Shown: positions 7,426-58,519, counted from the stretch's first letter. The stretch: 64,000 nt of DNA from an uncultured Gammaproteobacteria bacterium (GCA_964641355.1 CAZXND010000001.1:87858-151857), one strand, 5' to 3'. A program made the numbers and translations. The notes: a model not told the origin generated them from the sequence alone.

Positions 7426-8067
7426 TTATCCCTTATCTATCCAAACCTTAACTCCTACATAACCACTTTTTGTTAAAGATGGAACACTTGCGTAATCAAT
7501 ATTTTCTCTAATGGTTGAAAGGGAAACTTTTCCAGACTGAGTTCTCTCTCTTCTTCCAATTTCGGCTCCACCAATTCTTCCTGAAAGAACAATTCTCACA
7601 CCCTTTGCTCCCGATGACATAACTCTATCAGTAGCTTGTTTAAGTACTCTTTTATGTGGAAATCTTCTTGCTATTTGTTCTGAGATGTTACTTGCAACAA
7701 GATATGCGTTTAGATTAGGATCTTTTATTGGCTCGACTTTTATTTCCACCTTTGGTGCATTTTTATTCTCATTTTTTTGAGACAGAAGTCTTAAAATTCC
7801 TCGTCTTAATTCCTCGAGTCCTGTTCCACCTCTTCCAATAACAATTCCAGGTCTTACAACATAAATTATGATTTTTATGTGACTTGGTGATCTTTCTATT
7901 AACACATCTCCAACACTTGCCTGTCTAAGCTTTTTATAAAGCATTTCTCTTATTTGTATATCTTGAAAAACTATTTTTGAATAAGTCTTCTTAGGATAGA
8001 ACCCTATACTTTTGAAATCATGATGTATTCCAAGTCTCAATCCGATTGGATTAACTTTTTGACCCAT
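7426..8067 (-). CDS. rpsC: 30S ribosomal protein S3
   Basis: I place the start at the universal S3 N-terminus [13 protein letters not shown]. The ORF-track N-terminal extension is probably spurious. Confidence 0.85.
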
Positions 8068-8452
8068 TTTCCTCCTCCTTCTCTTTTTCAATCTTTGGCT
8101 TGCTAACAACTTTTACAATATCCTTACCTTCAATCACAACTTTAATATGACTCGTTCTTCTTTTATAAGGTCTTACCCTTCCTCTCGCCGCAAAGTGATA
8201 TCTTTTAAGCATCGTACCTTCATTAACAACAATACTTTTCAGTGTTAAATCCTCACGCTTAGCTTTAAAATTATTAATAGCGTTTGCTATCGCACTTTCA
8301 ATAGTTTTTTTCACTGGTGTTGAAGCTCTTTTATTTAAAATAGAGAGCCTTGAAAGTGCATGGTTTAATTTTTTGCCTCTTACAGCATCGGCAATTAACC
8401 TAACTTTTCTAGGTGAAATTCTTATATTTTTAGCTTCGGCTGTATACAACAT
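8051..8452 (-). CDS. rplV: 50S ribosomal protein L22
   Basis: I place the start at MLYTAEAKNIRISPRKVRLIADAVRG, the typical L22 start. A lysine/glutamate-rich C-terminal tail follows. Confidence 0.8.
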   Translation of the reverse strand: MLYTAEAKNIRISPRKVRLIADAVRGKKLNHALSRLSILNKRASTPVKKTIESAIANAINNFKAKREDLTLKSIVVNEGTMLKRYHFAARGRVRPYKRRTSHIKVVIEGKDIVKVVSKPKIEKEKEEENGSKS

Positions 8453-8456
8453 ATTT

Positions 8457-8741
8457 TTAAGTCTTTGAAATTTCTCTAGCAACAACTCTTCCATGTCCTC
8501 GAAAAACCCTTGTAGGAGAAAACTCTCCAAGTCTATGACCAACCATTGATTCTGTAACTTTTACTCCAATAAAGTTCTTACCATTATGAACCGCTATCGT
8601 GTGCCCTACAAATTCCGGTGGAATTTGACTCGCTCTTGCCCAAGTTTTAATAGCATCACGATTTCCACCTTCTTTTTGCTTAAGAACTTTCTTAAGCAGT
8701 CTCTGGTCGATATATGGCCCCTTAACTGATGATCTTGACAT
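8457..8741 (-). CDS. rpsS: 30S ribosomal protein S19
   Basis: 94 aa S19 core. Confidence 0.9.
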
Positions 8742-8746
8742 ATAAT

Positions 8747-9487
8747 TTAAGACTTTCTCCTTTTAACAATATATTTATCTGAATATTTCTTTTTCTTTCT
8801 TGTTTTACCTACCGCAATTCTTCCTGCATAATTCTTTGGACTCTTCATACCAACCGAACTTCTTCCTTCTCCTCCTCCATGGGGATGAGAGGATGGATTC
8901 ATAGCAACTCCACGAACAGTTGGCCTAATTCCCATATGAATTGATCTTCCCGCCTTTCCGATAACTCGATCTTTCCACTCAACTCTAGCAAGCTGCCCAA
9001 TTGTTGCATAGTTTTCTTCATTTATTTTTCTTATTTCACCAGATGGCATTTTAATATGGATATAATTACCTTCTTTTGCCATTATCATTGCTTGATCTCC
9101 AGCAGATCTTGCAACTTGTCCACCTTTTCCTCTTCTAAGCTCGATATTATGGACCATTGTTCCGACAGGAATCTTTTTTAAGGGAAGTGTGTTTCCGACT
9201 TTAATATCTACTCCCTCACCTGAAATTATATGATCACCAAGAGAAAGACCCAACGGTCTTAAAACGTATCTTTTCTCTCCATCTGCGTATTGTACCAAAG
9301 CAAGATCTGCAGATCTATTAGGATCATATTCAAAAGCAATAACTCTTGCTGGAATATTCTTTTCTCTCTTAAAGTCCACAAGTCTATAGAATCTCTTGTG
9401 TCTTCCACCCTGATGTCTCACGGTGACTTGACCAGAAAAATTTCTTCCAGAATGTTTTTTTAATATCTTCTTTAAATCTCTAGACAT
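8747..9487 (-). CDS. rplB: 50S ribosomal protein L2
   Basis: 246 aa; conserved L2 C-terminal half ([15 protein letters not shown]...). Confidence 0.9.
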
Positions 9488-9783
9488 TAGCTTTTCTTCT
9501 CTTTCTTTTCTTCAAAAATGTCAATCTTTTGACCTTTAGCAAGAACAACTCTAGCCTTTTTAAACTCGAATTGTTTTTGACTTTTTCCCTTTTTTGTCAT
9601 TCTCACAACTGATCCCCTTATAATATTGGTATCAACCTTCTTTACATTAACTCCAAAAGCCTTTTCTACAGCTCTCCTAATTTCGACCTTACTTGAGTCT
9701 TTATCAACGATAAAAGTATACCTACCTTTTCCAGCGTCAGTCATTGATTTCTCTGTAATAATAGGTCTGATTATTGAATTCAT
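9487..9783 (-). CDS. rplW: 50S ribosomal protein L23
   Basis: 98 aa L23. Confidence 0.85.
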
Positions 9784-9785
9784 AA

Positions 9786-10511
9786 TTATACTCTTATTAA
9801 CCTTTTAGATAAATCCTCGATTGCGTTTTTCTGAAAAATTACATAAGAAGCATCTAAAACGTCGTAAGTGTTTAAATCATTTGCATTTTCTACTTCAAGA
9901 CCTTCAATGTTCTTTGAGGCTTTAAAAATACTTTTTGAACCCTTAGAAATAACGAGAAGGATTTTATTAACCTCACCTCTTTTGCTAACTAAATTTAACG
10001 CTTTCAATGCGCCACTTATTTCTCTAGTTTTTTTGATTGTATCATCTACTGCTAAAACTATAATTTTCTCGTTTTTTAGCTTTTCAGTAAGTACGGCTGA
10101 CAAAGATTTTGCTCTCATTTTTTTAGGTAGATCTAAGGAGAAATCCCTAGGTTTTGGTCCAAAAACTATTCCTCCACCCACGAATATCGGTGCTCTTATC
10201 CCTCCGTGTCTAGCCTTTCCCGTTCCTTTTTGTCTATATATTTTTCTAGTTGACCCTCTCACTTCTCCTCTTGTTTTAGTTGAAGCGTTTCCTTCTCTTT
10301 GGTTTGCAAGAAAAACTCTTACAGCTTGAGCTATTAAACTAGGAGCAGCTGTAACACTAAAAATTTCTTTGGGAAGAGTAATTTTTCCAACACTTTTACC
10401 GCTAAGATCCATAATTGAAAGAATAAGCTCACTTTGCGAATCCTTTACTCTTGTAGTTACTTTTTCTGTTTTTGGACTAACTTTGGGCATTTTCATCCTC
10501 CTTAATCTCAT
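9786..10511 (-). CDS. rplD: 50S ribosomal protein L4. The longest ORF is given; an internal start near 10412 (MDLSGKSVGKITL...) would give a canonical ~208 aa protein.
   Basis: L4 core QKGTGKARHGGIRAPIFVGGG. Confidence 0.8.
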   Translation of the reverse strand: MRLRRMKMPKVSPKTEKVTTRVKDSQSELILSIMDLSGKSVGKITLPKEIFSVTAAPSLIAQAVRVFLANQREGNASTKTRGEVRGSTRKIYRQKGTGKARHGGIRAPIFVGGGIVFGPKPRDFSLDLPKKMRAKSLSAVLTEKLKNEKIIVLAVDDTIKKTREISGALKALNLVSKRGEVNKILLVISKGSKSIFKASKNIEGLEVENANDLNTYDVLDASYVIFQKNAIEDLSKRLIRV

Positions 10512-11337
10512 GCTCTAATTCACTATCTGTCCTTATTTCCTCTGCTTTAGTCTCAGAAGAACTAACATCAGCAGTATCATTAACAGCGTTATCCTCAACA
10601 AAAACTTCCTCTTTTTCGACAACTGGCTCGGTTGATCCAACGATCTCCTCATCAGCTTTTACTTCAGATTGTAAAAGATCTTCTTTCTTATAGAGAGGCG
10701 TGAACTTTTTATATTCTCCTATCTTCTCGATTCGAACGATCGAACCAATTGACCCGGGAATAAGACCTTTTACACTCACTATCTGATCGGTCACATCCAT
10801 AACAACTAAATTCCTAATTGTTATTTGGTCGTTTCCCATTTTACCAGCCATTTTCTTACCTTTATAAACTCTTCCAGGAGTTGTTGTTTGACCAATAGAT
10901 CCAGGGGCTCTTTCTCTATCCGATTGTCCATGAGTTCTTGGACCTCCACGAAAACCCCATCTTTTTACTACACCCGCATATCCTTTTCCTTTGGATACTC
11001 CAGTAACTTTAACCATATCTCCTGGTTTCAAAATTTCAGTTGTCTTAAGTTCTTTACCAAGAACATCCACTTCAATATCTTCTGCTTTTAATTCTCTGAA
11101 AAAACGGGGAAATTTCTCCACTCCCGCTTTTTTGACATGTCCAGAAAGTGCTTTATTAAGCTTCTTTTTAAAGTCAAAACCAACTTGAACAGCATTGTAT
11201 CCATCTTTATCAGATGACTTTACTTGAGTAACAATATTTTCTGCCACATGAAGAATAGACAAAGGGATTCTTGTTCCATCCTCCAAAAAACCTTGTGTCT
11301 GCTCTCTTTTTTTACCAATAATGCTATTTATCTGCAT
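10477..11337 (-). CDS. rplC: 50S ribosomal protein L3 with an acidic C-terminal extension of about 75 aa
   Basis: 286 aa; L3 core, then a D/E-rich tail (VEKEEVFVEDNAVNDTADVSSSETKAEEIRTDSELEHEIKEDENAQS). Confidence 0.85.
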   Translation of the reverse strand: MQINSIIGKKREQTQGFLEDGTRIPLSILHVAENIVTQVKSSDKDGYNAVQVGFDFKKKLNKALSGHVKKAGVEKFPRFFRELKAEDIEVDVLGKELKTTEILKPGDMVKVTGVSKGKGYAGVVKRWGFRGGPRTHGQSDRERAPGSIGQTTTPGRVYKGKKMAGKMGNDQITIRNLVVMDVTDQIVSVKGLIPGSIGSIVRIEKIGEYKKFTPLYKKEDLLQSEVKADEEIVGSTEPVVEKEEVFVEDNAVNDTADVSSSETKAEEIRTDSELEHEIKEDENAQS

Positions 11338-18473: not shown

Positions 18474-20255
18474 TTACTTGTCAATAGTTGCATCAAAAAC
18501 CTGATCCTCATCAAGTCTAAAAATTCCTTCATCTAATCTTTTTTGATCTAAATAATGTGCTATAAAACCTACAGATCTAGACAATACAAATAGAGCATTA
18601 AAAAATTCAGCATCAATGAGTTTTTGTAATTCTTCAATGGTAAGGTTTTCTTTTTCACTCAAAATATCCAACAATACCGCTGCAATAACTCCATCAACAT
18701 TTAGGATTAGATTTCCCTTTTTCTCTGTGGTTACTTTTTCTACAGCAAGAGCAAAATCAGAAAATTTATTTTCTTTAAGATTTTCTTTGAATTTTAGGAT
18801 TTCAATAACTCTTGGATCAGGAGCATCAACTCTGTATTTTTTATGTCCAATTCCTGAAATATATTCTCTTTTAGAAGCGAACTCTTCAACAAAATCTGAT
18901 GGGTTTTTTTCATCAATTACTCCCTTAAACCAATTTTCTGCTGCTTGATTTATCGCTCCTCCAAACCGTGAACCAATCGTTAAAAGGCCAGAAGAAAGAG
19001 AGGATACAAGATCCTTTCCTGCTCTAGCAGTAATAATCGTATTTACCGCACCTGATACATAAGGACCGTGATCTACAGAAAGTTTTAATACTAAGTCAGT
19101 GAAATCTTCAAGTTCTTTTGATTTAGATTTTCTTCCCAAGAAGAGAGAAATAACTATATAAGAAAAAGAGTGTTCACCTGTAAACTTCACTAAATCTTCC
19201 CCAAGTATTTTTACATTTCCATCAACATCTTGAGATATACTTGTGGCAATTAGAGCATGACGTCTATCTTCCATCTCTCTTATTCTACTATAGTCCGACT
19301 CGGTTTTCACTTTTTCTTTTTCAATATTATTTATTAATTCTATAAATTCAGAAAAATTTTCTGCCACCATAACTCCTGCTTCGGAAAGAATTTTCTTTTT
19401 ACTTCTCGCTGATTCATCGACATCTTTTGCTATCGCCTTTGCATGACCAAATTGTGGGGGATTAGGAAAAACTTCTGCGACACTTCCTGCAATATAAGCG
19501 ATAACATTTTTGGTAATTTTTTTCTCGTAAATCAATTTTGCAATCTCGTATTCATCTACACCACCCAGTTCACCAAAATAGATAATGTGCTTTGTATTTC
19601 CATCTTTTTGAGCGGATAAAAATGCTTCAGTTGGAGTCAAAATGGGAAACCTTTCTCCTCCAAAAGAAAGTGCGAAAGAGAGCCTAAGACCAGAATTTGT
19701 TACCATTCTTATAATTTCATTTGTCATCCCTCCGGAAGAACTCATAACAGCTACATTTCCAGAGTCAAAAAGCGCTGAATCGATAAGTTGTCTTGGGTCA
19801 ACTCCTCCAATCGCACCAAGCTTTAAAATTTTAGGAATAATAAATCCAACACTAGCTGGACCTATTAAAAATTTATTATTATTTACAACTTTCGTATAAA
19901 GGTATAAAGAATGTTTTTCTGGCACCTCTTCAGCAAAAACTACCCCACCTAAGATGTTTTCAAAATCTAATAATTCATTCGAGTAATTAAGCGTTCTTCG
20001 TCCTGATGACAAATTGAGAAATAGGTTTGTATTTTCTGGAATTTCTTCAAACTCTGGAAAAACAGGGATCATAATTTCTTGCTTTCCAAAAAAATATCTT
20101 TCGTATTTTCTTCCAGAAGCAAATATTCCTACAATGCTAGGTTCTTTTTTACCAGCAAGAAAATCAAAATCAAGTATTGATTGGATTATAGAGGGATAAG
20201 ACCCAATTGTAACTATTTTAGCCTCGTATTTTCTTAATTTTTCAATATCTAACAT
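18474..20255 (-). CDS. aclA: ATP-citrate lyase large subunit (CoA-binding/SucD-like domain fused to a citryl-CoA lyase/citrate synthase-like domain)
   Basis: 593 aa; phosphohistidine motif QFGHAKAI. The C-terminal domain reads GIGHKKYRVDAPDPR...ALAVEKVTTEKKGNLILNVDG...FVLSRSVGFIAHYLDQKRL, almost identical to the corresponding ACLY segments. Confidence 0.85.
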   Translation of the reverse strand: MLDIEKLRKYEAKIVTIGSYPSIIQSILDFDFLAGKKEPSIVGIFASGRKYERYFFGKQEIMIPVFPEFEEIPENTNLFLNLSSGRRTLNYSNELLDFENILGGVVFAEEVPEKHSLYLYTKVVNNNKFLIGPASVGFIIPKILKLGAIGGVDPRQLIDSALFDSGNVAVMSSSGGMTNEIIRMVTNSGLRLSFALSFGGERFPILTPTEAFLSAQKDGNTKHIIYFGELGGVDEYEIAKLIYEKKITKNVIAYIAGSVAEVFPNPPQFGHAKAIAKDVDESARSKKKILSEAGVMVAENFSEFIELINNIEKEKVKTESDYSRIREMEDRRHALIATSISQDVDGNVKILGEDLVKFTGEHSFSYIVISLFLGRKSKSKELEDFTDLVLKLSVDHGPYVSGAVNTIITARAGKDLVSSLSSGLLTIGSRFGGAINQAAENWFKGVIDEKNPSDFVEEFASKREYISGIGHKKYRVDAPDPRVIEILKFKENLKENKFSDFALAVEKVTTEKKGNLILNVDGVIAAVLLDILSEKENLTIEELQKLIDAEFFNALFVLSRSVGFIAHYLDQKRLDEGIFRLDEDQVFDATIDK

Positions 20256-20260
20256 ATTTT

Positions 20261-21439
20261 TTAAGACACATAATTAATAGATGGTCTAACAATATCCGTT
20301 AACGGAATTTCTGCACCAAAAACCTCACCTAGGAGGTTTTCTTTATCTAGAAAATCTCTAATAAGAGCTAAACCTTCTTTATCGTGTGGACCACCTCGTC
20401 TAACAAAAATCTTAACTCTCTGAGCCCTTAATTCACTTGAAACTTCCGAAAGCGCATTAATAATACCCTTAAATGTGACTCTTACATCAGTGAAATTTGC
20501 AACACCACCACCGATTATCAGAGCCTTTTTCGGAGCACGAGATTTTAAAAGAAGTAAAAGAAGATTTTTCGCATAAATGTAAGTTTCTTCTTTATTGGGA
20601 TTTCCACTATATTCTCCGTAATTTGCGATAAGACTGGCTTCACCTTCAAGAAATACCTCATCAGCAAGAACCACACTTCCACCACCACCGGACAATAAAA
20701 GAAAAATCGCACCATCAGGGTTTAATACTTCAAGACTAAAAGACGAAGCACTTTCTTCTGAAAGTTTTTGAATATTAAGCTCTTCTTCTGTTTTTTTTCT
20801 ACTATTAAACTCGACAAAATCTCTTTCATTCCACTTATCTTCAACAAAAAAAATAGCTGAAGCATCTACTTCAACGGCACAATCTAAAATAAAAATTTTT
20901 TCATCAATAACTCTAAGGGGGTTAATTTCCAAAAATGAAAAATAATATTCTTCAAATGAATCAACTATCTTTTCAAGTATTCCCTCTTCTATTCCTAAAA
21001 ATATTTTTACTTCAACAAGATCTGATTCTTTTCTTACAAGAGTTCTCCTAATATTATCTTCTTCTTCAATATCTACTCCTCCTTTATCGGAATAAAGAAG
21101 CATAAGACCATCTCTAACTCTTTGAATTGATAAATAATAATCCTTGGCTTTATCAGAAGAAATAAACTCTTCAATTATAAATTTTTCATATCCTTGCTTA
21201 TTAAACTCTTCAAGTTTTTCTTTAATCTGATCCGGAGAGAGGTTTAACCCCACAAGACCCTGTTTAAATCTTTTTTTTACTCCTTGATCAACTTTTACTA
21301 CATATTTTTTAGAATTATCTAGTATTAAATCTGGAATAGAGTTTTCATTAAAATCAAACTTTACTGAAGTATTAAGCAATTTAAGCTCTGTGTAAATTAT
21401 TTCTTTTGCACGGAATTCTGAAAGTTTCTTTCTAGCCAC
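20261..21439 (-). CDS. aclB: ATP-citrate lyase small subunit (ATP-grasp/SucC-like)
   Basis: 392 aa; FLEINPL, ANYGEYSGNP and IIGGGVANFTDVRVTFKGII...IFVRRGGP match hallmark ACLY/AclB motifs. Confidence 0.85.
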   Translation of the reverse strand: MARKKLSEFRAKEIIYTELKLLNTSVKFDFNENSIPDLILDNSKKYVVKVDQGVKKRFKQGLVGLNLSPDQIKEKLEEFNKQGYEKFIIEEFISSDKAKDYYLSIQRVRDGLMLLYSDKGGVDIEEEDNIRRTLVRKESDLVEVKIFLGIEEGILEKIVDSFEEYYFSFLEINPLRVIDEKIFILDCAVEVDASAIFFVEDKWNERDFVEFNSRKKTEEELNIQKLSEESASSFSLEVLNPDGAIFLLLSGGGGSVVLADEVFLEGEASLIANYGEYSGNPNKEETYIYAKNLLLLLLKSRAPKKALIIGGGVANFTDVRVTFKGIINALSEVSSELRAQRVKIFVRRGGPHDKEGLALIRDFLDKENLLGEVFGAEIPLTDIVRPSINYVS

Positions 21440-37917: not shown

Positions 37918-38124
37918 CTAATCCTCTAACTTAATTTGTCTCATAGCATATCTACTGAAATTTTTAATCAGCCGTGTTAACTCAAAAAATAACATATTAA
38001 TAAAGCGAACAATAAATGGTTCTGCAAGAAAAAAAAGATATTTAATTCTCTCCCAGATTTTGTTAATTAATAAAATTAATGAATTTGAGTTTTCTGTTTC
38101 GAATTCTAGTGTTTCTTCTGTCAT
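37918..38124 (-). CDS. Small hypothetical protein (68 aa, partly hydrophobic)
   Basis: ORF overlapping the sortase stop by 4 nt; no known motif. Confidence 0.3.
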   Translation of the reverse strand: MTEETLEFETENSNSLILLINKIWERIKYLFFLAEPFIVRFINMLFFELTRLIKNFSRYAMRQIKLED

Positions 38125-38852
38125 GAGTTGTCCATATCATCTAATCTTGCTTTTATAATTAATCTTTTCCAGGTTGTTCCTGGCGGCGTGCATGTAACAA
38201 TTGTTAAATAGCTCTCATCAAGTGATTGCGATAAAATATTTGTATCCTCTGGGTCCGTAATCGTTATTGAAAACACTTTGTACTGAAATTCTACTCCATT
38301 TACTTTAATTAAAACCTTATCTCCAACCTTTAAAGTATGAAGAGTTGCAAAAATAGCTTTATAATTTTTGGGGTCAAACAACTGAGGAAGAGTAGAGTGT
38401 CCGAAAATTACAGCATTTCCTTTTTCCGGAGGCGTAGAAGTTCCAAGATACTGTACAAGGTGTTTTGAAAGATCATAATCACGCGTTGATACTTCCGCAT
38501 CTAAGATCTTCAATCTTGGAATTGAAAATAAATATGAATCAACTTTTTTCTGATCGTATTGGTTTTTAATTTCAGGATACCAGTTTCTTGCATCAACATA
38601 ATCTGATCTAAACGAATCTAATCCCTGAGAGATCAAAGTGCCTATCCCCGTCTTTTTAACAAGATACTTTGGAACTGGAAGTTCTATTTCATTTTGAGCC
38701 AAAATCGGTGAGAGGAAAATCTGATAGGAAATCATAGGAAATAGAAAGTATGAAGTTAAAATGAATCCAAATAAAATTAATAAAGTGCCAAAAACTTTGA
38801 TGGAAACTTTTTTATATTTTTTCTTTCCCTTGACATAGTAATACTTACTCAT
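38121..38852 (-). CDS. Sortase family transpeptidase
   Basis: 243 aa; N-terminal TM, catalytic His in VIFGHST, and the TLxTC motif LTIVTCTPPGT. Confidence 0.75.
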   Translation of the reverse strand: MSKYYYVKGKKKYKKVSIKVFGTLLILFGFILTSYFLFPMISYQIFLSPILAQNEIELPVPKYLVKKTGIGTLISQGLDSFRSDYVDARNWYPEIKNQYDQKKVDSYLFSIPRLKILDAEVSTRDYDLSKHLVQYLGTSTPPEKGNAVIFGHSTLPQLFDPKNYKAIFATLHTLKVGDKVLIKVNGVEFQYKVFSITITDPEDTNILSQSLDESYLTIVTCTPPGTTWKRLIIKARLDDMDNS

Positions 38853-41067
38853 TTGATCGAATTAATAAATTGATATTCTTAGAATTAGTGGGAAGTTTGT
38901 TTGGAAATAACGGCAATTTATTTTTTAGTACAATCATGAAAGAAGAAACTCCCTTGGTATTATCCAAAATTTCTTTTGCATCGTTTATATTCTTACCTTT
39001 TAATTTTTCCGCTATTTCATCTGATTTTATTTTTGGAACAAAAACTGCATCCGCAACAAGCTTTGCTTTAATTTCACCATTCTTCTGGGTTTCAAAATTA
39101 GATAATTTAATTTTTGAATCTTCAGAAACATAATTATAATTTGAAGGAATTCCACCAGAATCATCTCTAATCACCTTCTCCAAATCAGAAACACTATACT
39201 TACCTACTTTAAAATTAATTTTGACTGCTAAATGCAAATCAGAAGACTGATCTCCTTTTTTCTTACTAAAGTTTTTAGCCACATACTCATAGTCAAAACT
39301 CTCAGGCAATAATTCTTCATCAGTAGCTTTTTGAGATGAAGCCTTTTCAATTGCTTGTTTTTCAAGACTACCAAATACTTTTGCTTCAAGAGTATCAAGA
39401 TCCTTTTGAGATACAGTCTTTATTTCTTTTTTTGTTCCACCAGAAAAAGCAGAATCATTTTTTGCGAGCACATCAGATTGTGAAAAGTCTCCGACACTAA
39501 AGTTTGTTCCAGAAGGAAGATTATATTCCGTACCAAATTTTGAAGCTTCAATTTTTACCTTTGCACTTGGAGGGGTTATAGCACTAGCACTAAAAGATGC
39601 AACAGAAACATTATCTACTAAAATAAACTTTAGGTTATTAGAAGATGTAATTACACTTCCTTTGTCAAAAGTTCTTTTTTGATCGGATTTATTGTAAACA
39701 GTAATTTCGCCCGTTGATTTATCTCCCGTTTCAGTTATTCCAGTAACATCGGCATCCCCTTCTCCACTTATTTCCTCATCAAAAATTGACACCTTAATAG
39801 AATTTCCTGAGGTAACTTCATTGGATGAAAAAACTAAATCAGATTTTTCATTTACAGACTTTCTGTCAGTAAACACAGAAATGTCCGCTTTAAGAATTAA
39901 TCCATAATACACAAAAGAGAATAAGAATAAGAGAATTAAAAAAACTACAGGGACCACCAATAACCCTGCTTTTTTCTGAGTACTAAAAACAGACGGTAAA
40001 TATATTTTTGGAAAAGAAATTTTTTCTGTTATATTTGAAATTCTCGAAAAAACACTTTTAGCTACTGGCACAGATGAAACATCATTAATTCTAATGTCTT
40101 CTACTTTATTTTCTCCCTTATCAAACTCCGGAATTATTAAATTACTTTCTTCATTTATAGACACTGGGGAAGCTTCATCTTCCACAGTATCCTCTTCTAC
40201 TTCGCCCTTAGCAAATTGAATATCTTGATCCTTTACAAATCCGAATTCTTGAGATTCAGATGTCATCAGTTTTTCAGCATTCTCCTCAACGTCCTTTCCT
40301 GCCTTTATCTCCATCTCAACACGATATCCCATTTGATTTCCAACGCCAGATATTATTGCCTCTTTCTCAAATCCCTTTTCAAGAACAACTGTCTGAGGGA
40401 TGTGTAAAAAAGGCAACTCTTTACTCCATTGATACGAAAGAAAACTCTGCTGAATTTCTTCTGCCTGCTCATAATCGAGGAGAACTATTTTAGAAGGTAA
40501 TACTTCAACATTTTCTATCTTTTTAAGCAGTTTTTCAACTGACCTCGGTAAGTCATCTTCCACATCACCACTTCTCGCCTCAATAACATTATCGTTTTTA
40601 ACGATATAAACATAAATTTTTCTTCCTCCTATTTCAACAAAAATCGAAGAAACTGGTGCACCTTCGGATTTCTTTACAAAAGATGTTATTGCCTCAACTG
40701 AAATTATAAAACCTATGGGAGTAAGGTCTAGTGCTTCACAAATACTTTTAAGTTTTGCGAGATATTCTTTTTTTATTTTTCCAGCATCAACCCAATCGTA
40801 AGGAACAGCAAAAATTGTTTTATTTAGCGGCACCCCTTCAGGAAGGCTTGTTTCTACGAAACTGATAACCTTATCTGATGCTGAGAGAATATCTTCTTCT
40901 TCAAAAGTGGAATTATTTAGAAGCTCGTCCTTTGTGGAAATAACGTGAAGGGACTGTCCTAGTTTTTCAAAAAGTATCGCTCCAACATTTCTAGAATTAA
41001 TAATTAAAGAAAGAAAATATTCTCTTTCCTCTTTCTTTTTATTTAAAAGCTTAGGCAGATTTATCAT
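38845..41067 (-). CDS. Bitopic membrane protein: cytoplasmic actin-like (PilM/FtsA/GspL-like) domain, one TM, then a large S/T/K-rich extracytoplasmic domain
   Basis: 740 aa. The first ~230 residues follow a PilM/FtsA-like strand pattern (VGAILFEK..., FAVPYDWVD, ICEALDLTPIGFIISVEAI, SSIFVEIGGRKIYVYIV); a single TM (LLVVPVVFLILLFLFSFVYYGLIL) lies near residue 370; about 350 aa follow outside the cell. The fold assignment comes from pattern only. Confidence 0.35.
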   Translation of the reverse strand: MINLPKLLNKKKEEREYFLSLIINSRNVGAILFEKLGQSLHVISTKDELLNNSTFEEEDILSASDKVISFVETSLPEGVPLNKTIFAVPYDWVDAGKIKKEYLAKLKSICEALDLTPIGFIISVEAITSFVKKSEGAPVSSIFVEIGGRKIYVYIVKNDNVIEARSGDVEDDLPRSVEKLLKKIENVEVLPSKIVLLDYEQAEEIQQSFLSYQWSKELPFLHIPQTVVLEKGFEKEAIISGVGNQMGYRVEMEIKAGKDVEENAEKLMTSESQEFGFVKDQDIQFAKGEVEEDTVEDEASPVSINEESNLIIPEFDKGENKVEDIRINDVSSVPVAKSVFSRISNITEKISFPKIYLPSVFSTQKKAGLLVVPVVFLILLFLFSFVYYGLILKADISVFTDRKSVNEKSDLVFSSNEVTSGNSIKVSIFDEEISGEGDADVTGITETGDKSTGEITVYNKSDQKRTFDKGSVITSSNNLKFILVDNVSVASFSASAITPPSAKVKIEASKFGTEYNLPSGTNFSVGDFSQSDVLAKNDSAFSGGTKKEIKTVSQKDLDTLEAKVFGSLEKQAIEKASSQKATDEELLPESFDYEYVAKNFSKKKGDQSSDLHLAVKINFKVGKYSVSDLEKVIRDDSGGIPSNYNYVSEDSKIKLSNFETQKNGEIKAKLVADAVFVPKIKSDEIAEKLKGKNINDAKEILDNTKGVSSFMIVLKNKLPLFPNKLPTNSKNINLLIRSNE

Positions 41068-42857
41068 GTAACTTTTGCGTATATTCTTCTAGTATTCTTT
41101 CCCGCTCCTTCCTCTTTTATAATCTTAAACGATTTTATTTCACCTGTAAAATCCACATGAGGACCTCCACAAAATTCTTTTGAATAATTTCCAACAAAGT
41201 ACACTTTTACATTGCTACTATACTTATCGTCAAAAAGACCTATCGCACCTATATTTTTAGCCTGATCTATAGACATGATCTCGAAGTGAACAGGAAGGTT
41301 TTCCTTTATCCTTGTCAAAACAATCTCATCAACCATTTTAACCTCCTCGTGTGTTAACTTTCTATCAAAAGAAAAATCAAACCTTAATCTCTCAGATGTA
41401 ATATTTGATCCTGTTTGGTGAACTGATTCTCCTAATACATCTCGTAACGCCTGGTGCAAGAGATGAGTTGCAGTGTGACCCTTAACCGTCAACTCTTCAT
41501 GGTCAGCTAATCCACCTGCAAATTTTTGTTTAGCTCCCTTTCTTGATAAATCTTGATGTTTTTTTATTTTCTCTACAAACTCTTCCTCAGAAAAAGTATA
41601 TCCCAAACTTTTAATTTGAGAGGGTGATAATCCATGCGTAGAATAAAGAGTAAATGCATCCTCTGAAGATATTTCTTTTACTCCCAAAATTTCATCTCCT
41701 ATATCGCGGTACTTTTTAATTATATAATTCTTTGCACTCTCAACTGTTCTTTTATATGTATTTTTCTCTTCTAAAAAGGTTAATTTAATATTCTCAAATT
41801 TTTTTAATAAAATAGAGTCTGTAGGAGAATATTGTTCGACTATTTTTTCTAGTACTAAATCCACATCATCAATCCCAAGCTTATATAAATTATCAATACC
41901 ACGTCTTATTAATCTTCTTAGTAGATATCCCTGTTCCTTATTTGAAGGTCTGATACCATCTGCTGCAATAAAAGAACCAGCTATAAAATGGTCTGAAACA
42001 ATTCTCATTTCTCGTTCGTTTTCTTTGTATTTTTTACCCGAAACTTCCTCAAGAGACTTCACAATTGGGAAAAAGAGGGATGTTTCAAAAATGTCATTTT
42101 TATCTTCTGTAGCAGCGATAAGCCTTTCAAGTCCTCCTCCAAAATCAACATTAGACTTGGGAAGTCTTTTAAACTCTCCGTCTTTTTCCTTCACGTATTC
42201 CATGAATACACTATTTCCAATCTCTAATAATCTCCCTTTATCAGACAACTCTTTAAAACTTCCCCCTATCTCTCCTTCTTCAGGTTTTAAATCAAAATAA
42301 ACCTCACTATCAGGACCTCCTAATTCGCCAGGAGGCATTTTCTCAGGAACTCCAGACCTCGACCACCAGTTATCCTCAACTCCACAATAAAAGATTCTCC
42401 CATTAGGGTTTATATTTTCGGAATTAAATAGTTCTTTCCAAATTTCAGCAGACTCATCGTCTTTTGGAATATTTTTATACCCTTCAAAGACACTTACATA
42501 AAGCCTTTTAGGATCTAATAACAATTCCTTTGTCAGAAATTCAAAGAACCAAGGGATCTGCTCACGTTTAAAATAATCACCCAAACTCCAATTCCCAAGC
42601 ATTCTAAAAAATGTTGTATGACGATTATCACCAATCTCATCAATATCTTGTGCGCGAAAACAATTTTGAACATTAACCAAACGTGTTCCCGAAGGATGCA
42701 CTTCTCCAAGAAGGTAAGGAATCAATGGCTGCATTCCAGATGAAGTAAAGAGTGTCGTGGGATCATTCTCTGGAATTAACGAAGAATTAGCTATTAAAGC
42801 ATGTTTTCTCTTCTCAAAAAAAGATATATAAATATTTACAATATCCTGAGCACTCAT
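41064..42857 (-). CDS. alaS: Alanine--tRNA ligase, short form lacking the C-terminal C-Ala domain
   Basis: 597 aa; class II catalytic core plus editing domain (HTATHLLHQAL ... CGGPHV), ending right after the editing domain. Confidence 0.85.
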   Translation of the reverse strand: MSAQDIVNIYISFFEKRKHALIANSSLIPENDPTTLFTSSGMQPLIPYLLGEVHPSGTRLVNVQNCFRAQDIDEIGDNRHTTFFRMLGNWSLGDYFKREQIPWFFEFLTKELLLDPKRLYVSVFEGYKNIPKDDESAEIWKELFNSENINPNGRIFYCGVEDNWWSRSGVPEKMPPGELGGPDSEVYFDLKPEEGEIGGSFKELSDKGRLLEIGNSVFMEYVKEKDGEFKRLPKSNVDFGGGLERLIAATEDKNDIFETSLFFPIVKSLEEVSGKKYKENEREMRIVSDHFIAGSFIAADGIRPSNKEQGYLLRRLIRRGIDNLYKLGIDDVDLVLEKIVEQYSPTDSILLKKFENIKLTFLEEKNTYKRTVESAKNYIIKKYRDIGDEILGVKEISSEDAFTLYSTHGLSPSQIKSLGYTFSEEEFVEKIKKHQDLSRKGAKQKFAGGLADHEELTVKGHTATHLLHQALRDVLGESVHQTGSNITSERLRFDFSFDRKLTHEEVKMVDEIVLTRIKENLPVHFEIMSIDQAKNIGAIGLFDDKYSSNVKVYFVGNYSKEFCGGPHVDFTGEIKSFKIIKEEGAGKNTRRIYAKVT

Positions 42858-45171: not shown

Positions 45172-45792
45172 TCATTTAACAATTACTGATAACTCTTTTT
45201 TACTAGATTTTCCATATCTGTTTTTGGCTACTATTTTTATCTTCTGTTCACCCGAAAAAGTATAGATTGTTTTCTTAAAGGATCCGTCAAAAGGAGCAAC
45301 ATAAACTTCCTCTTCGTTAATAAAAAGGGCTGCATAGGGATCTGTTTTTCCTTTGACTTCAATTAAATTTCCGCCTATGATTGATCTATCTCGGGGACTA
45401 ACCACTTCAAGCTTTGGACCAAAAATGAGTGACCCGTATTGAAAAATAATAAAAATAATAATTATTATAAAAGTTGCAAACAAAAGAATTCTCTTTGCAT
45501 CAAAAAAACCTTTCCTAACAGATTCTCTTTGTTTAAAAGTTACACTATTCTCTTTTTTATCATCATATTCTCTTCGAAAAAGAGCGATTGCCTTCCCTTC
45601 GGGATAGCCAAGAAATGATGCATAATTTTTTACAAACCCCATTGCATATGCTTGAGATGGTAACTGATCGAATTTCCCGTTTTCTATTGCCAAAAGAAAA
45701 TTCTTTCTTATTTTTGTAATTCTTTCAACATGCTCAATGGAAAGGTCTCTCTTTTCCCTTTCTTCCTTCAATAATTGGCTGATTTTTTGCAT
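45172..45792 (-). CDS. rodZ: RodZ-like cytoskeleton protein (XRE HTH, TM, C-terminal domain)
   Basis: 206 aa; N-terminal HTH LSIEHVERITKIRKNFLLAIENG, central TM, C-terminal DUF4115-like segment. Confidence 0.65.
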   Translation of the reverse strand: MQKISQLLKEEREKRDLSIEHVERITKIRKNFLLAIENGKFDQLPSQAYAMGFVKNYASFLGYPEGKAIALFRREYDDKKENSVTFKQRESVRKGFFDAKRILLFATFIIIIIFIIFQYGSLIFGPKLEVVSPRDRSIIGGNLIEVKGKTDPYAALFINEEEVYVAPFDGSFKKTIYTFSGEQKIKIVAKNRYGKSSKKELSVIVK

Positions 45793-45815: not shown

Positions 45816-47921
45816 TTAAGTTGATCTATTAAGAATTTCTTCAGGATTTTTTACTATTACATCACGGGGCTTTGATCCATCTCCGGGACCAACGACTCCA
45901 GCCGCTTCAAGCTGTTCGATAATTCTTGCTGCCCTATTAAAACCTATAGAAAGCTTTCTCTGAAGAAGGGAGGACGAAGCTCTATCGTACTGACATACAA
46001 TTCTTACTGCTTGCTCAAACAATTCATCTTGATCGTCATGCACTGATCCATCACTACTATAAGTGACACCTCCACGCTTTAAATTTACAGGCTGTTCAAC
46101 AACTTCAGTTGTGTATTGAACTGGAATTCCACGAGACTTAATAAAATTAACTAATCTTTTTACATCTTGATCTGATACAAAGGTTCCTTGAATTCTCGTA
46201 GGTTTAGCTTGATCAGGTGGTACGTACAACATATCTCCTCTTCCAAGAAGCTTCTCTGCTCCTGGCGTGTCAATAATAACCTTACTATCAACCATCGAAG
46301 AAACATTAAACGCTATCCTACAAGGAATATTGGCTTTAATTAATCCCGTTATAACATCTACTGAAGGTCTTTGAGTTGATAACACTAAATGTATTCCAGT
46401 TGCACGTGCCATTTGTGCAAGACGGGCAATCGAGTCCTCAACTTCAACAGGTGCAAGCGCCATCAAGTCAGCAAGTTCATCTATAAATATGATTAAATAA
46501 GGAAGAGCTTGAAACCCAGACAACTCGTTAAAAGAATCAATATTCCTTACTCCTGCATCAGCAAACTTTATATATCTTCTATCCATCTCCTTAAGAGCCC
46601 ACTTAAGAGCAGAAACACTTTTATCTGCATCAACAACTACAGGAGTTAAAAGGTGGGGAATATCATTATAACCAGTCAACTCAACTCTTTTAGGATCAAT
46701 TAGAATCATCTTGACCTCAGACGGTGAAGCCCTAAAAAGCAAAGAGGATATAATAGAGTTAACGAGTACTGATTTTCCAGATCCTGTTGTTCCAGCAACA
46801 AGTACATGAGGCATTTTAGCAATATCAGCAACCACTGGATTTCCTGAGACATCTAAACCAAGAGGAACAATCGTCTTTGATTTTGCCTTCTGCATTTGTG
46901 AAGATTCAAGCATTCTTTTAAGACCTACCATCTCAAGACCTCTATTTGGAACTTCTATACCTACCAAGTCTCTTCCAGGAATCGGAGCTTCGATTCTTAT
47001 CTGACCGGTAGGTGCTTCCGTTGCAAGAGCAAGATCATTAGCAAGAGCTGTGACTTTTGAAAGTTTAGTTCCCTGAGCAATTCTAATTGCATACTGAGTA
47101 ACTGAAGGGCCCATGTTTATTTCGATAATTTTTGCCTGAATTCTAAAACTTTGGAGCGTGTTTTCAATAATCGCAGCGGTCTTCTTTACATCACCAGTAT
47201 CCTTTTTTTTATCAGCGTGCTCTGATAGTAAAGAAAGTGGAGGATACTCCCAAACTCCCATTTCAAGAGGTTCATTAAGAATGATATCATCACTCAAATC
47301 CTTCTTTGCAGCTGCAACGACAGGAGGTTGTGAGTGAGATTCAGAAGAAGTAGGAGTATCTTTTAAGCCTTTAATTTTTATTTGATCTATATCATTAGTT
47401 GATTTTTTAGTTTTAAGCAAAGGAAAGATCCTTTGACTAATAAAGACGCCCACAAAAGACAATGATTTAGAAATTACCGAAAAAACTTGAGAAATAGATA
47501 AATTAAAGAATATACTTAGTCCTAAAAATATTCCTACAAAGAAAATAATATTGCTTAAAATTCCACCCAAGAGCGCGTCAGTATTTGCAAAAATAAGTAT
47601 TCCAACATAACCTTGTTTAAAAAGAGAAACAGAAGATAAGGTCATTATTAAAAAACCTAGGAAAAAAGTTGGCTTTGTAAATTTAGATTTTATTCTTGTT
47701 AACAGCAGAGCAAAAAGAAGTATATTAAATGGGATGAAAAATCCAAATAAACCAAAAAAATAAACCAAATATCTATTTGTAGTACTTAGAAATTCTCCAT
47801 TTTTTGTGTAAGAGAAAAGCAAAAGAGCAGAAAACAAGAAGAGACAAATACAAAAAAGTGTATAAATAGTATCATTTTTAAGCTTGAGCTTAAATAAATT
47901 TCTTTTTTTGTGTCTACCCAC
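45816..47921 (-). CDS. ftsK: DNA translocase FtsK/SpoIIIE
   Basis: 701 aa; 4 N-terminal TMs, linker, motor domain with Walker A VLVAGTTGSGKS, and a C-terminal gamma-domain. Confidence 0.9.
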   Translation of the reverse strand: MGRHKKRNLFKLKLKNDTIYTLFCICLFLFSALLLFSYTKNGEFLSTTNRYLVYFFGLFGFFIPFNILLFALLLTRIKSKFTKPTFFLGFLIMTLSSVSLFKQGYVGILIFANTDALLGGILSNIIFFVGIFLGLSIFFNLSISQVFSVISKSLSFVGVFISQRIFPLLKTKKSTNDIDQIKIKGLKDTPTSSESHSQPPVVAAAKKDLSDDIILNEPLEMGVWEYPPLSLLSEHADKKKDTGDVKKTAAIIENTLQSFRIQAKIIEINMGPSVTQYAIRIAQGTKLSKVTALANDLALATEAPTGQIRIEAPIPGRDLVGIEVPNRGLEMVGLKRMLESSQMQKAKSKTIVPLGLDVSGNPVVADIAKMPHVLVAGTTGSGKSVLVNSIISSLLFRASPSEVKMILIDPKRVELTGYNDIPHLLTPVVVDADKSVSALKWALKEMDRRYIKFADAGVRNIDSFNELSGFQALPYLIIFIDELADLMALAPVEVEDSIARLAQMARATGIHLVLSTQRPSVDVITGLIKANIPCRIAFNVSSMVDSKVIIDTPGAEKLLGRGDMLYVPPDQAKPTRIQGTFVSDQDVKRLVNFIKSRGIPVQYTTEVVEQPVNLKRGGVTYSSDGSVHDDQDELFEQAVRIVCQYDRASSSLLQRKLSIGFNRAARIIEQLEAAGVVGPGDGSKPRDVIVKNPEEILNRST

Positions 47922-56809: not shown

Positions 56810-58519
56810 GTGAAAACTTTTGCACTCAAACTAATATTTACCGTAATAATTATTTTTTTTATTTCAAAACCCGCATTAGCGGATTCACCCTGGGTTATTA
56901 ATAATTTCAACAGTAATATTAATATCGAAAAATCAGGAAAAATTATTATTGAAGAAAAAATAAATCTTAATTTTAAAACTTTAGAAAAACATGGAATTTA
57001 CAGAGATATTCCCATCGTATATAACCAAAACGGGAAAAAAATATATACAAAATTACAAGTTTTGAAAATTGAAAAAAATGATGTACCTGAAAAATATTCG
57101 GTTTCAAACAATGGAAATAATTTAAGAATAAGAATTGGAGATCCCAATAAAACTGTGCACGGGTTTCAAGAATACTCAATTATTTATTCTGTAATTGGAG
57201 TTATCTCATCCCATAAAGACTTTGATGAATTTTATTGGAATGTTACAGGAAATAACTGGGAAGCAGATATTTTACATACTGAGGCGAAAATCACACTACC
57301 CGAGAATCTCATTATCCAAACATCTTGTTATGAAGGCGTCTTTAGATCTATAGAAAAATGCGATGCTAAAAACACAAAGAAAGATGCCGCTTTCAGCTCT
57401 AAAAGGACTTTAATATCAGGGGAAGGATTTACCATTGCAGTAGGATTCAAAAAAGGAATAATTAAAATCTTATCAGGAAAGACTTTTTACAACACGCTGC
57501 AAGAATTATCTTTCTTCTATTACATTCTCTTTTTTCTAACTCCTATTGCTCTTTCTCTTTTTATTTTAGTTAAAAAATGGCGTGAAAGTGGACGAGATTC
57601 AAGATTAAATACAGATAATGTAATTGTAGTTGAATACGAATCACCAAATAAACTCCGCCCTGCTGAAATAGGAGTGCTTATTGATGAAAAAGCTGACACA
57701 AAAGACGTGACATCAACTATTATCGACCTTGCAGAACGTGGTTTCTTGACAATAAGGGAAATAAAAAAAAGTTGGATGTTTGGAAAAAACGACTATGAAC
57801 TTACTAAAAAAACAAAGGATAAAAAAAATCTTCTGACATATGAGCGACTTCTTTTAGATAAACTTTTTGAGAGTAGAAGCACTTTAAAAACCTCTAATTT
57901 AAAATACAAATTCTATAAGGAAATGGCAAAGATCAAAGATTCCCTTTATGAGGAGCTCGTAAACAAAAACCTATTCCCAAAAAATCCGGAAAAAGTAAGA
58001 ACATTTTACTTAGTTATTGCCATAATAACCATTATCATCTCTATCCTTATTTTCTTTACATCCATATCTACTCAAATTTTTGCACTTATTGCCCTTTCCT
58101 CTGGTATTTTAGTAAGTGGTCTAATAACTCTAATATTCTCAAAAATTATGCCAAGAAGAACTGTATTGGGTTACGAATTATATAGGAAAGCTTTAGGATA
58201 TAAACTATTCTTAGATCGTGCAGAGAGTTACAAACAAAGATTCTTTGAAAGTAAAAATTTAATAAATGAGGTTCTTCCTTATACTATCGCGTTTGGGATG
58301 ACTAAAAAGTTTTCAGAAGCAATGAAAGAAATAGGACTTGAGAAGGAAATGGGAAAAGGATTTTATCACGGTGCAACTTTCAATTCTATTTCTTCCAGTT
58401 TGGACGCCTTATCCTCATCTTTATCATCTGCAATCTCTTCTGCTCCCACATCTAGTGGGTCAGGTGGAGGAGGGTCTTCAGGAGGAGGTTTTGGGGGTGG
58501 TGGTGGAGGCAGCTGGTAA
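56810..58519 (+). CDS. DUF2207-family membrane protein with a Gly-rich C-terminal tail
   Basis: 569 aa: signal peptide, a ~230-aa extracytoplasmic domain, TM segments flanking a cytoplasmic region, and a C-terminus ending SGSGGGGSSGGGFGGGGGGSW, typical of DUF2207 proteins. GTG start. Confidence 0.55.
   Translation: MKTFALKLIFTVIIIFFISKPALADSPWVINNFNSNINIEKSGKIIIEEKINLNFKTLEKHGIYRDIPIVYNQNGKKIYTKLQVLKIEKNDVPEKYSVSNNGNNLRIRIGDPNKTVHGFQEYSIIYSVIGVISSHKDFDEFYWNVTGNNWEADILHTEAKITLPENLIIQTSCYEGVFRSIEKCDAKNTKKDAAFSSKRTLISGEGFTIAVGFKKGIIKILSGKTFYNTLQELSFFYYILFFLTPIALSLFILVKKWRESGRDSRLNTDNVIVVEYESPNKLRPAEIGVLIDEKADTKDVTSTIIDLAERGFLTIREIKKSWMFGKNDYELTKKTKDKKNLLTYERLLLDKLFESRSTLKTSNLKYKFYKEMAKIKDSLYEELVNKNLFPKNPEKVRTFYLVIAIITIIISILIFFTSISTQIFALIALSSGILVSGLITLIFSKIMPRRTVLGYELYRKALGYKLFLDRAESYKQRFFESKNLINEVLPYTIAFGMTKKFSEAMKEIGLEKEMGKGFYHGATFNSISSSLDALSSSLSSAISSAPTSSGSGGGGSSGGGFGGGGGGSW

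Follow-up and report, generated by a model that had tools for sequence, protein, structure and literature searches.

Several membrane-tethered scaffolds are built around an actin-like domain of the ASKHA superfamily. Among them are FtsA, which attaches to the membrane through an amphipathic helix and carries a 1C (SHS2) and a 2B (FtsZ-peptide site) subdomain besides its 1A/2A core, and the PilM–PilN(–PilO) and GspL systems, where an actin-like cytoplasmic domain goes together with a bitopic membrane partner (encoded by the adjacent genes pilM and pilN, or joined in one polypeptide in GspL). GspL is also devoid of nucleotide binding. To our knowledge, an FtsA-family actin linked to a membrane protein with a wedge-like outer domain, as in phage baseplates, is not known in any model bacterium, and neither do we know of a precedent for a sortase that is fixed to an FtsA-derived bitopic partner. 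Both seem to be encoded in a 64,000-nt stretch of DNA (one strand; hereafter the window) that was deposited as an uncultured Gammaproteobacteria bacterium (GCA_964641355.1, CAZXND010000001.1:87858-151857), in which three genes between 37,918 and 41,067, all on the minus strand, specify a bitopic protein of 740 amino acids (aa), a sortase and a small protein of 68 aa. A sequence-only reading of the window had already pointed out the sortase and the 740-aa protein at 38121-41067, and every feature it described was found in its place.

Profile comparisons and gene order indicate that the 740-aa protein arose by the fusion of two genes, one of the FtsA family and the other, next downstream, for a bitopic protein, both of which exist as separate genes in other lineages of the Candidate Phyla Radiation (CPR). 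By analogy with FtsA, PilM–PilN and GspL, the trio may work like a member of the class of membrane-tethered actin-like scaffolds, and it is tentatively proposed, as a possibility rather than a probability, that it forms an FtsA-derived division or wall-growth scaffold that positions the sortase.

Origin of the 740-aa protein

A profile search with the ectodomain retrieved relatives of 550-610 aa (referred to as X) in Parcubacteria, Berkelbacteria and other CPR, which align with the fused protein from just before the transmembrane (TM) helix to the C-terminus (hhalign probability 100%, E=3.6e-44). The alignment does not extend to the cytoplasmic parts, where X has an unrelated N-terminal domain of ~90 aa in place of the ASKHA domain. 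This domain, which may bind the FtsA-like partner of X, has no match in Pfam or the PDB, and is itself conserved (VYI..DEEI.S.I.KI....I.LV.P.N.....NLKLL; aa 1-90 of P0302, P0294, P0295 and P0297; loci L085-L089). Directly upstream of X, a separate FtsA-like gene (~420 aa) is present in four of the five loci examined (L088 being the exception), and the pair is hosted by Saccharibacteria-type contigs, Berkelbacteria and Parcubacteria. In three loci (Berkelbacteria and two Saccharibacteria-type contigs) the gene order is alaS–ftsA-like–X–ruvX–mltG, and the fused gene of Microgenomates occupies the same chromosomal slot as the ftsA-like–X pair, which is what argues for a gene fusion, in which the FtsA part takes the place of the ~90-aa cytoplasmic domain of X.

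The FtsA-like partners belong to a very large family, whose members go by FtsA, 'FtsA domain-containing' or PilM depending on the source. They retain 1C and 2B as well as the DIGGGTTD and CGGGS motifs, and have an amphipathic helix at the C-terminus. When compared with solved structures they score 1e-24 with FtsA, 3e-14 with PilM and 3e-8 with MreB. Their profile aligns with aa 10-232 of the 740-aa protein (hhalign probability 95.9-96.5%, E=5.6e-9 and 7.9e-10), with two large inserts on the side of the partner, where 1C and 2B are located. Reciprocally, the hidden Markov model (HMM) of the partner matches fused proteins with E-values down to 4e-11, the match being split into three collinear pieces that skip HMM positions ~98-189 and ~259-309, while the HMM of the N-terminal domain matches all four partners and not the MreB in locus L086. 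The FtsA part thus lost 1C, 2B and the ATP-binding motifs during the fusion.

The predicted structure of the N-terminal domain is in line with such a reduced core. In the AlphaFold model, for which the input alignment held 21 sequences, the domain is ordered at aa 16-253 with a pLDDT above 90 in most 10-residue blocks, and its secondary structure runs through bbb-a-b-a-b-a twice, i.e. the minimal ASKHA topology of two RNase-H-like subdomains. Foldseek against the PDB gave 378 matches at E<=0.001, with a probability of 1.0 in all 50 that were listed, and these include Ppx/GppA, PilM, FtsA, MreB, ParM, EutJ and ROK kinases. Because the scores are alike across these families (E ~1e-9 to 1e-7, TM-scores of 0.33-0.48), the modelled fold makes membership of the ASKHA superfamily certain, but not that of any subfamily. 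The sequence-only reading, which had assigned the N-terminal ~230 aa to an actin fold of the FtsA/PilM lineage and had considered the protein bitopic, with a cytoplasmic N-terminus and a single TM helix, is borne out on the first point by AlphaFold and Foldseek, while hydropathy agrees with the second.

The identity of the domain was resolved solely via structure prediction and the intermediate FtsA-like profile, since profile searches against Pfam, NCBIfam and the PDB returned no match for it, and neither FtsA (TIGR01174 / PF14450) nor PilM_2 or T2SSL gave any signal in a Pfam scan of 21 family members at E<=10. In the alignment columns of 59 homologs, the phosphate-1 position is an invariant Leu21 where an Asp is expected, with no conserved Gly, and phosphate-2 is reduced to Glu145 (54/59), with Gly147 in 32/59. 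The equivalent of CGGGS (the adenosine GG motif) is gone as well, both in the columns and in the hhalign alignment, and none of the ASKHA ATPase signatures (DxG, DxGGGT, GG) was found. What is left is an FtsA-family core without 1C, 2B and nucleotide-binding signatures. Ppx/GppA is nevertheless the top Foldseek match, and a number of acidic residues (D65, E72, E125, E135 and E145) are conserved, as might be expected if the protein were a transmembrane enzyme or signalling protein with a catalytic ASKHA domain, such as a Ppx/GppA-like phosphatase or kinase. With a phosphate-1 loop that has lost its Asp and Gly, a phosphate-2 Gly in little more than half of the homologs, a specific profile link that leads to FtsA-like proteins instead, and Foldseek E-values that do not separate the ASKHA families, this explanation is extremely improbable, and a Ppx/GppA identity was rejected on the grounds of the nucleotide-binding columns.

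In comparison with FtsA itself, the fused protein has the 1A/2A core and the profile homology (via the unfused CPR proteins), its gene is at the chromosomal position of the ftsA-like gene of other CPR lineages, and it is permanently attached to the membrane. It differs in the absence of 1C, 2B and the phosphate-binding signatures, in the lack of an FtsA HMM match, and in being joined by a true TM helix to a 348-aa ectodomain. In addition, no ftsZ is present in the window or in any of the related loci examined. A clear FtsA, and hence a division protein, was the outcome against which the sequence-only reading had weighed its own proposal; the derivation from FtsA holds, but the domain is too reduced for a canonical FtsA. 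A large distance separates the annotated ftsA from ftsZ in TM7x (PMC10768705), which would fit the FtsA-like partner of X being the FtsA of that organism. In the supplement of Méheust 2019, FtsA and PilM are merged in one family.

Between the N-terminal domain and the TM helix lies a variable, acidic and disordered linker, in which the motif FGFxKxxD stands out by its conservation (G276 and F277 in 59/59, F275 in 52/59 and D282 in 54/59) at a pLDDT below 50. It looks like a peptide-docking motif.

The baseplate-like ectodomain

The sequence-only reading had described the outer part as a large, S/T/K/D-rich extracellular region, which is correct as to the region but incomplete as to its nature, since the C-terminal 348 aa are confidently folded (mean pLDDT of 90.2 in the AlphaFold model). 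Several lines of evidence relate this fold to the wedge proteins of phage baseplates (the J/gp47/XkdT/TRI-2 family). Over positions 20-113 of a profile of 255, Pfam Baseplate_J (PF04865) reaches 23.1 bits, for a gathering cutoff of 21.1. When PDB sequences were searched with a profile, TRI-2 (CD1371), a triplex protein of diffocin, was found at E=5.5e-7. Foldseek (3Di) alignments span the entire ectodomain, both with wedge proteins in the PDB, including those from phi812, XM1, Pa193, diffocin and Mu, and with Baseplate J/gp47/XkdT entries in the viral library BFVD. The TM-scores are nonetheless low (~0.23) at a very high root-mean-square deviation, which indicates that the same chain of domains is present in a different arrangement. 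The most conserved motifs of the family (TGKKETGDKAKG, FGKEYNLPSGTNF and AFSGGTKKE) are located in the beta-barrel subdomain, and the (Y)NLP and GG(T) motifs are common to the ectodomain and the Baseplate J family. The small barrel also matches, at 20-23% identity, the N-terminal beta-barrel of GlxA (PF21110, found in homologs), a membrane-tethered copper oxidase of Streptomyces in which an N-terminal anchor likewise holds the barrel close to the outer side of the membrane; the barrel is all that the two have in common, as the 740-aa protein has no oxidase domain.

Two motifs in the ectodomain were considered as sites for the adjacent sortase and rejected. The C-terminal LPxFPxxLPxN is not followed by a hydrophobic tail, forms a confidently folded loop and strand, and is not conserved in Roizmanbacteria, while the NLP of the conserved NLPSGT is also present in the phage homolog TRI-2, and NLPSGT therefore belongs to the fold.

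An ectodomain that aligns over its entire length with the baseplate wedge proteins of phages and pyocins, and that has earned fragments of the family the NCBI name 'baseplate J/gp47 family protein', might be a domesticated remnant of a phage tail, acting as receptor decoy, defence element or anchor of a contractile system. However, other baseplate genes, as well as those for tail, sheath or tube, are absent from every locus examined, where the neighbours are housekeeping and cell-wall genes instead; the locus lies amid core genes and is syntenic over several CPR lineages, which fits old vertical inheritance; and the ectodomain is fused to or paired with FtsA-like genes. A phage remnant is thus hardly credible. 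In contrast to the members of the Baseplate J family, the 740-aa protein is cellular, membrane-tethered and outward-facing, with FtsA-like genes and a sortase as its partners. The database label, where it is not just 'hypothetical protein', wrongly implies prophage content.

The same ectodomain bears on the proposal of the sequence-only reading that the protein is an assembly platform of the GspL or PilM-PilN(-PilO) type, i.e. part of a type IV filament or type II secretion-like system, of which the sortase would decorate or anchor the appendage. The succession of an ASKHA domain, a TM helix and an ectodomain is indeed that of GspL and of PilM plus PilN, PilM structures are among the top Foldseek matches of the N-terminal domain, the unfused partner goes by the name 'PilM' in some databases, and type IV pilus genes are widespread in CPR (PMC6744442). 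The resemblance to GspL is one of architecture only, however. The ectodomain is baseplate-J-like and not of the ferredoxin-like periplasmic fold of PilN, PilO and GspL, and no PilN, PilO, GspL or GspM fold is among its top 50 Foldseek matches. HMMs of PilM (PF11104 / TIGR01175) and GspL (PF05134 and PF12693) do not match the 740-aa protein. The N-terminal domain has a sequence affinity to FtsA over PilM and no SHS2-type insert, and the unfused partner, which has an amphipathic helix of the FtsA type at its end, is likewise nearer to FtsA than it is to PilM. Furthermore, the window and the annotated related loci are devoid of pil, gsp and pilin genes (pilB/C/T, pilN/O and gspE/F/M included), while the closed Microgenomates genome Ch65 keeps its type IV pilus genes, PilM among them, at a separate locus of their own, alongside a single sortase (PMC7143001). 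A pilus or secretion platform is therefore improbable, and the surface-appendage module that the sequence-only reading had derived from it could not be upheld either, with no pil genes in the window or the annotated loci and no proteins with a sorting signal near the module in 80 loci.

The sortase and its adjacency to the fused gene

Pfam recognises the sortase at E=7e-22 (PF04203), and so does NCBIfam, where sortase_fam reaches 62.8 bits for a cutoff of 39.35. The enzyme has what characterises the generic family, i.e. the PF04203 / TIGR01076 HMM match, the His-Cys-Arg triad and a membrane anchor. The triad of His152, Cys221 and Arg230 is kept in 79/79 sortases, and from this conservation the enzyme is predicted to be intact and active. 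Among solved structures it comes closest to those of class D and class C, namely 4d70 and class C sortases, and with classes C, D and E it shares the sortase fold HMM, the N-terminal anchor, and the triad with its TLxTC-type Cys; it stays, however, below every subclass cutoff of NCBIfam (66.5 bits against 160 for class C, NF033745) and has no adjacent LPXTG substrates or pilins. Open reading frames (ORFs) with a C-terminal sorting signal are absent from the window, and a scan of the 1025 ORFs within ~6 kb of the module in 80 loci yielded 2 loose matches, compared to 12 in the reversed control.

These results also bear on the possibility that the sortase polymerises LPXTG pilins into a pilus or fibre, of which the ectodomain would be the basal platform. 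Although class C pilus sortases are among the nearest classified relatives and filaments of several types occur on the surface of CPR cells, the enzyme scores far below the class C cutoff, and the flanking pilin genes that go with such a sortase are missing from the window and within ~6 kb of the module in the 80 loci. The recently reported Pam pili, which are specific to CPR, moreover, are assembled by donor-strand exchange and not by sortase, which the preprint mentions just as background on Gram-positive pili (10.64898/2026.03.03.709456). Such a pilus base is very improbable.

The adjacency of sortase and fused gene is conserved. The full-length family comprises 167 word-index matches and 1421 clusters at 50% identity, nearly all of 720-820 aa, and the records named by lineage are Levy-, Roizman- and Shapirobacteria and other Microgenomates. 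Adjacency was assessed in 80 species-representative loci, of which 79 have downstream sequence (L023 being a contig end), and in 78 of these 79 a same-strand sortase abuts the fused gene, with overlapping stop and start codons in most. The only true absence is in L084, a Roizmanbacteria genome, in which the next gene (7837-10956) encodes a secreted protein of 1039 aa that by eye looks beta-propeller-like, with a dockerin-like C-terminal tail. The order is alaS–fused gene–sortase–small ORF–nucleoside phosphorylase–YceG/MltG in Levybacteria and alaS–fused gene–sortase–RuvX–YceG in Shapirobacteria, whereas Roizman-type loci have a VanW/PG_binding_4 protein, a solute-binding protein, the fused gene, the sortase and a class A penicillin-binding protein (PBP), which means that the pairing persists despite a complete turnover of the other neighbours. 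Conservation in related genomes, a check that the sequence-only reading had suggested, hence speaks against a chance association.

Many of the public metagenome-assembled genomes (MAGs) that carry the Microgenomates-specific module, in typical CPR synteny, are titled 'uncultured Gammaproteobacteria bacterium' (L008-L022 and others), and further titles are Lysobacterales, Sulfotelmatobacter, Pseudomonadales and Bdellovibrionales. These titles look like mislabelling by the submitters.

Within the trio, the codons of successive genes overlap. The alaS stop and the start of the 740-aa gene share ATGA, the stop of the latter and the start of the sortase overlap by 8 nt (ATGAGTAA), and the sortase stop and the start of the 68-aa gene again overlap by 4 nt (ATGA), as read from the sequence at each junction. 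This packing points to translational coupling in a single operon, a conclusion that draws on the overlapping codons and not on the scan for consensus promoters and terminators, which gave counts no higher than the shuffled expectation and is uninformative in this respect. The expectation of the sequence-only reading that the sortase is co-transcribed with the 740-aa protein and a small downstream ORF is in agreement with these overlaps, and the small gene is real: a homolog is located on the same strand, directly 3' of the sortase, in 50 loci (found by profile iteration). Its product is a small membrane protein that has a hydrophobic/amphipathic helix, and it is the third gene of the trio in Levybacteria-type genomes.

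It could still be that the pairing has no mechanistic meaning, i.e. that a general envelope or wall protein and a housekeeping sortase merely share an operon. The operon also holds the unrelated alaS and nucleoside phosphorylase genes, CPR genomes pack their genes tightly, and the sortase is absent beside the unfused relatives and in L084. Against this stand the adjacency in all but one of the loci despite the full turnover of other neighbours, and the overlapping codons in most of them, so that a pairing without meaning is considered unlikely.

Cell-wall context and meaning for the Candidate Phyla Radiation

The surroundings of the module are rich in peptidoglycan genes. YceG/MltG is downstream in Levy- and Shapirobacteria, the Roizman-type loci have the class A PBP downstream and the VanW/PG_binding_4 protein upstream, and MreB-MreC-PBP2, SLT and LysM-CHAP genes are near the unfused ftsA-like–X pair. 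In Gram-positive cocci, the septum is where sortase A accumulates together with its substrates. For the proposed division or wall-growth scaffold, the ATPase-dead FtsA core might serve as a cytoplasmic module for docking, polymerisation or self-association, and would tie the 740-aa protein to sites of division or wall growth, much as FtsA, PilM and GspL do with the membrane proteins that they partner. On the outside of the membrane, next to newly made peptidoglycan, the baseplate-J-like ectodomain could then assemble into an oligomeric platform. The co-expressed sortase would thereby be in a position to link its substrates, whose genes lie elsewhere, to lipid II or to new wall.

A number of points weigh against this proposal. 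Without 1C and 2B, the N-terminal domain could not bind FtsZ or late divisome proteins in the manner of FtsA. No sortase substrate was found near the module in the 80 loci. The sortase is not adjacent to X in the loci of the unfused lineages, and together with its absence in L084 this makes the sortase an add-on to an older function. Finally, the order alaS–ruvX–mltG is what we take to be an old syntenic block (alaS-yrzL-ruvX-yrzB-mltG in B. subtilis), so that the presence of peptidoglycan genes may in part be incidental.

Table 1. Coordinates of the trio, its domains and residues, and of other features of the window
Feature	Position (nt)	Strand	Basis
Gene of the 740-aa bitopic protein	38845..41067	-	ORF call; 167 full-length homologs
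Cytoplasmic minimal ASKHA (actin-like) domain, aa 16-251	40315..41022	-	AlphaFold, Foldseek, hhalign, reciprocal HMMs, motif columns
Linear motif F275-G276-F277-x-K-x-x-D282	40222..40245	-	disordered acidic cytoplasmic linker, column counts
Single TM helix, aa 365-392 (by hydropathy about 365-396)	39892..39975	-	hydropathy; aligns with TM helix of unfused relatives
Extracellular domain, aa 393-740, homologous over its full length to baseplate wedge proteins	38848..39891	-	AlphaFold, Foldseek against PDB and BFVD, PDB profile
Beta-barrel subdomain, aa 443-552	39412..39741	-	Pfam Baseplate_J; GlxA barrel PF21110 in homologs; invariant columns
Sortase gene, 243 aa	38121..38852	-	ORF call, Pfam, NCBIfam
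Sortase N-terminal TM anchor, about aa 14-43	38724-38798 (aa 19-43)	-	hydropathy
Sortase catalytic domain, aa 111-237	38142-38522	-	
Sortase His152	38397-38399	-	
Sortase Cys221	38190-38192	-	
Sortase Arg230	38163-38165	-	
Small gene, 68 aa	37918..38124	-	ORF call; profile iteration; ATGA overlap with sortase stop
AlaRS gene	41064-42857	-	
RodZ-like gene	45172-45792	-	
FtsK gene	45816-47921		
Envelope genes	13665-17027		
Gene pair like ATP-citrate lyase subunits	18474-21439	-	
DUF2207 membrane protein gene	56810-58519	+	

The AlaRS encoded upstream of the trio (597 aa) consists of tRNA-synt_2c and tRNA_SAD domains without the long C-terminal extension, and its relatives at related loci are 565-660 aa in length. 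Further upstream, a RodZ-like protein (an HTH_25 domain followed by a TM helix and a Glucodextran_B-like beta domain) is encoded next to FtsK, and is a second candidate for a bitopic adaptor from cytoskeleton to envelope in this region. A cluster of other envelope genes in the window codes for an SLT lytic transglycosylase, a GH18-like protein and a LytR_C protein whose linker is rich in Thr and Pro, and a DUF2207 membrane protein has an odd Gly/Ser-rich end (SSGSGGGGSSGGGFGGGGGGSW). The gene pair that resembles the subunits of ATP-citrate lyase (392 aa with ATP-grasp and Citrate_bind domains, and 593 aa with a CoA-ligase and a citrate-synthase C-terminal domain) is surprising in a metabolically minimal CPR genome. 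Nearly all genes of the window (1-64000) are on the minus strand, the GC skew stays below zero in all 2-kb bins and decreases monotonically when cumulated, which suggests that the window belongs to one replichore with a strong strand asymmetry, as has also been reported for another Microgenomates genome (PMC7143001).

In the literature searched, neither the fused protein nor the unfused FtsA-like/X pair nor the coupling to a sortase was found to be described, even though this is a large, conserved family amid core genes (with 1421 fused clusters and thousands of unfused FtsA-like partners). CPR/Patescibacteria may represent a large share of bacterial diversity, of which the envelope and division machinery are little known. 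It is conceivable, though doubtful, that FtsA and its wedge-like bitopic partner constitute an unrecognised component of division or wall growth that is widespread in CPR, of which the Microgenomates version became ATPase-dead and fused, and recruited the housekeeping sortase. The occurrence of the unfused pair in Saccharibacteria-type contigs makes the idea testable, as Saccharibacteria can now be cultured and mutated.

For Microgenomates, the module provides a concrete hypothesis for their near-universal sortase. If such an unrecognised, CPR-wide component exists, the anchoring of surface proteins would be mechanically coupled to the synthesis of septal or nascent peptidoglycan, and if these organisms have no other FtsA, the tethering of their Z-ring must differ from that of other bacteria.

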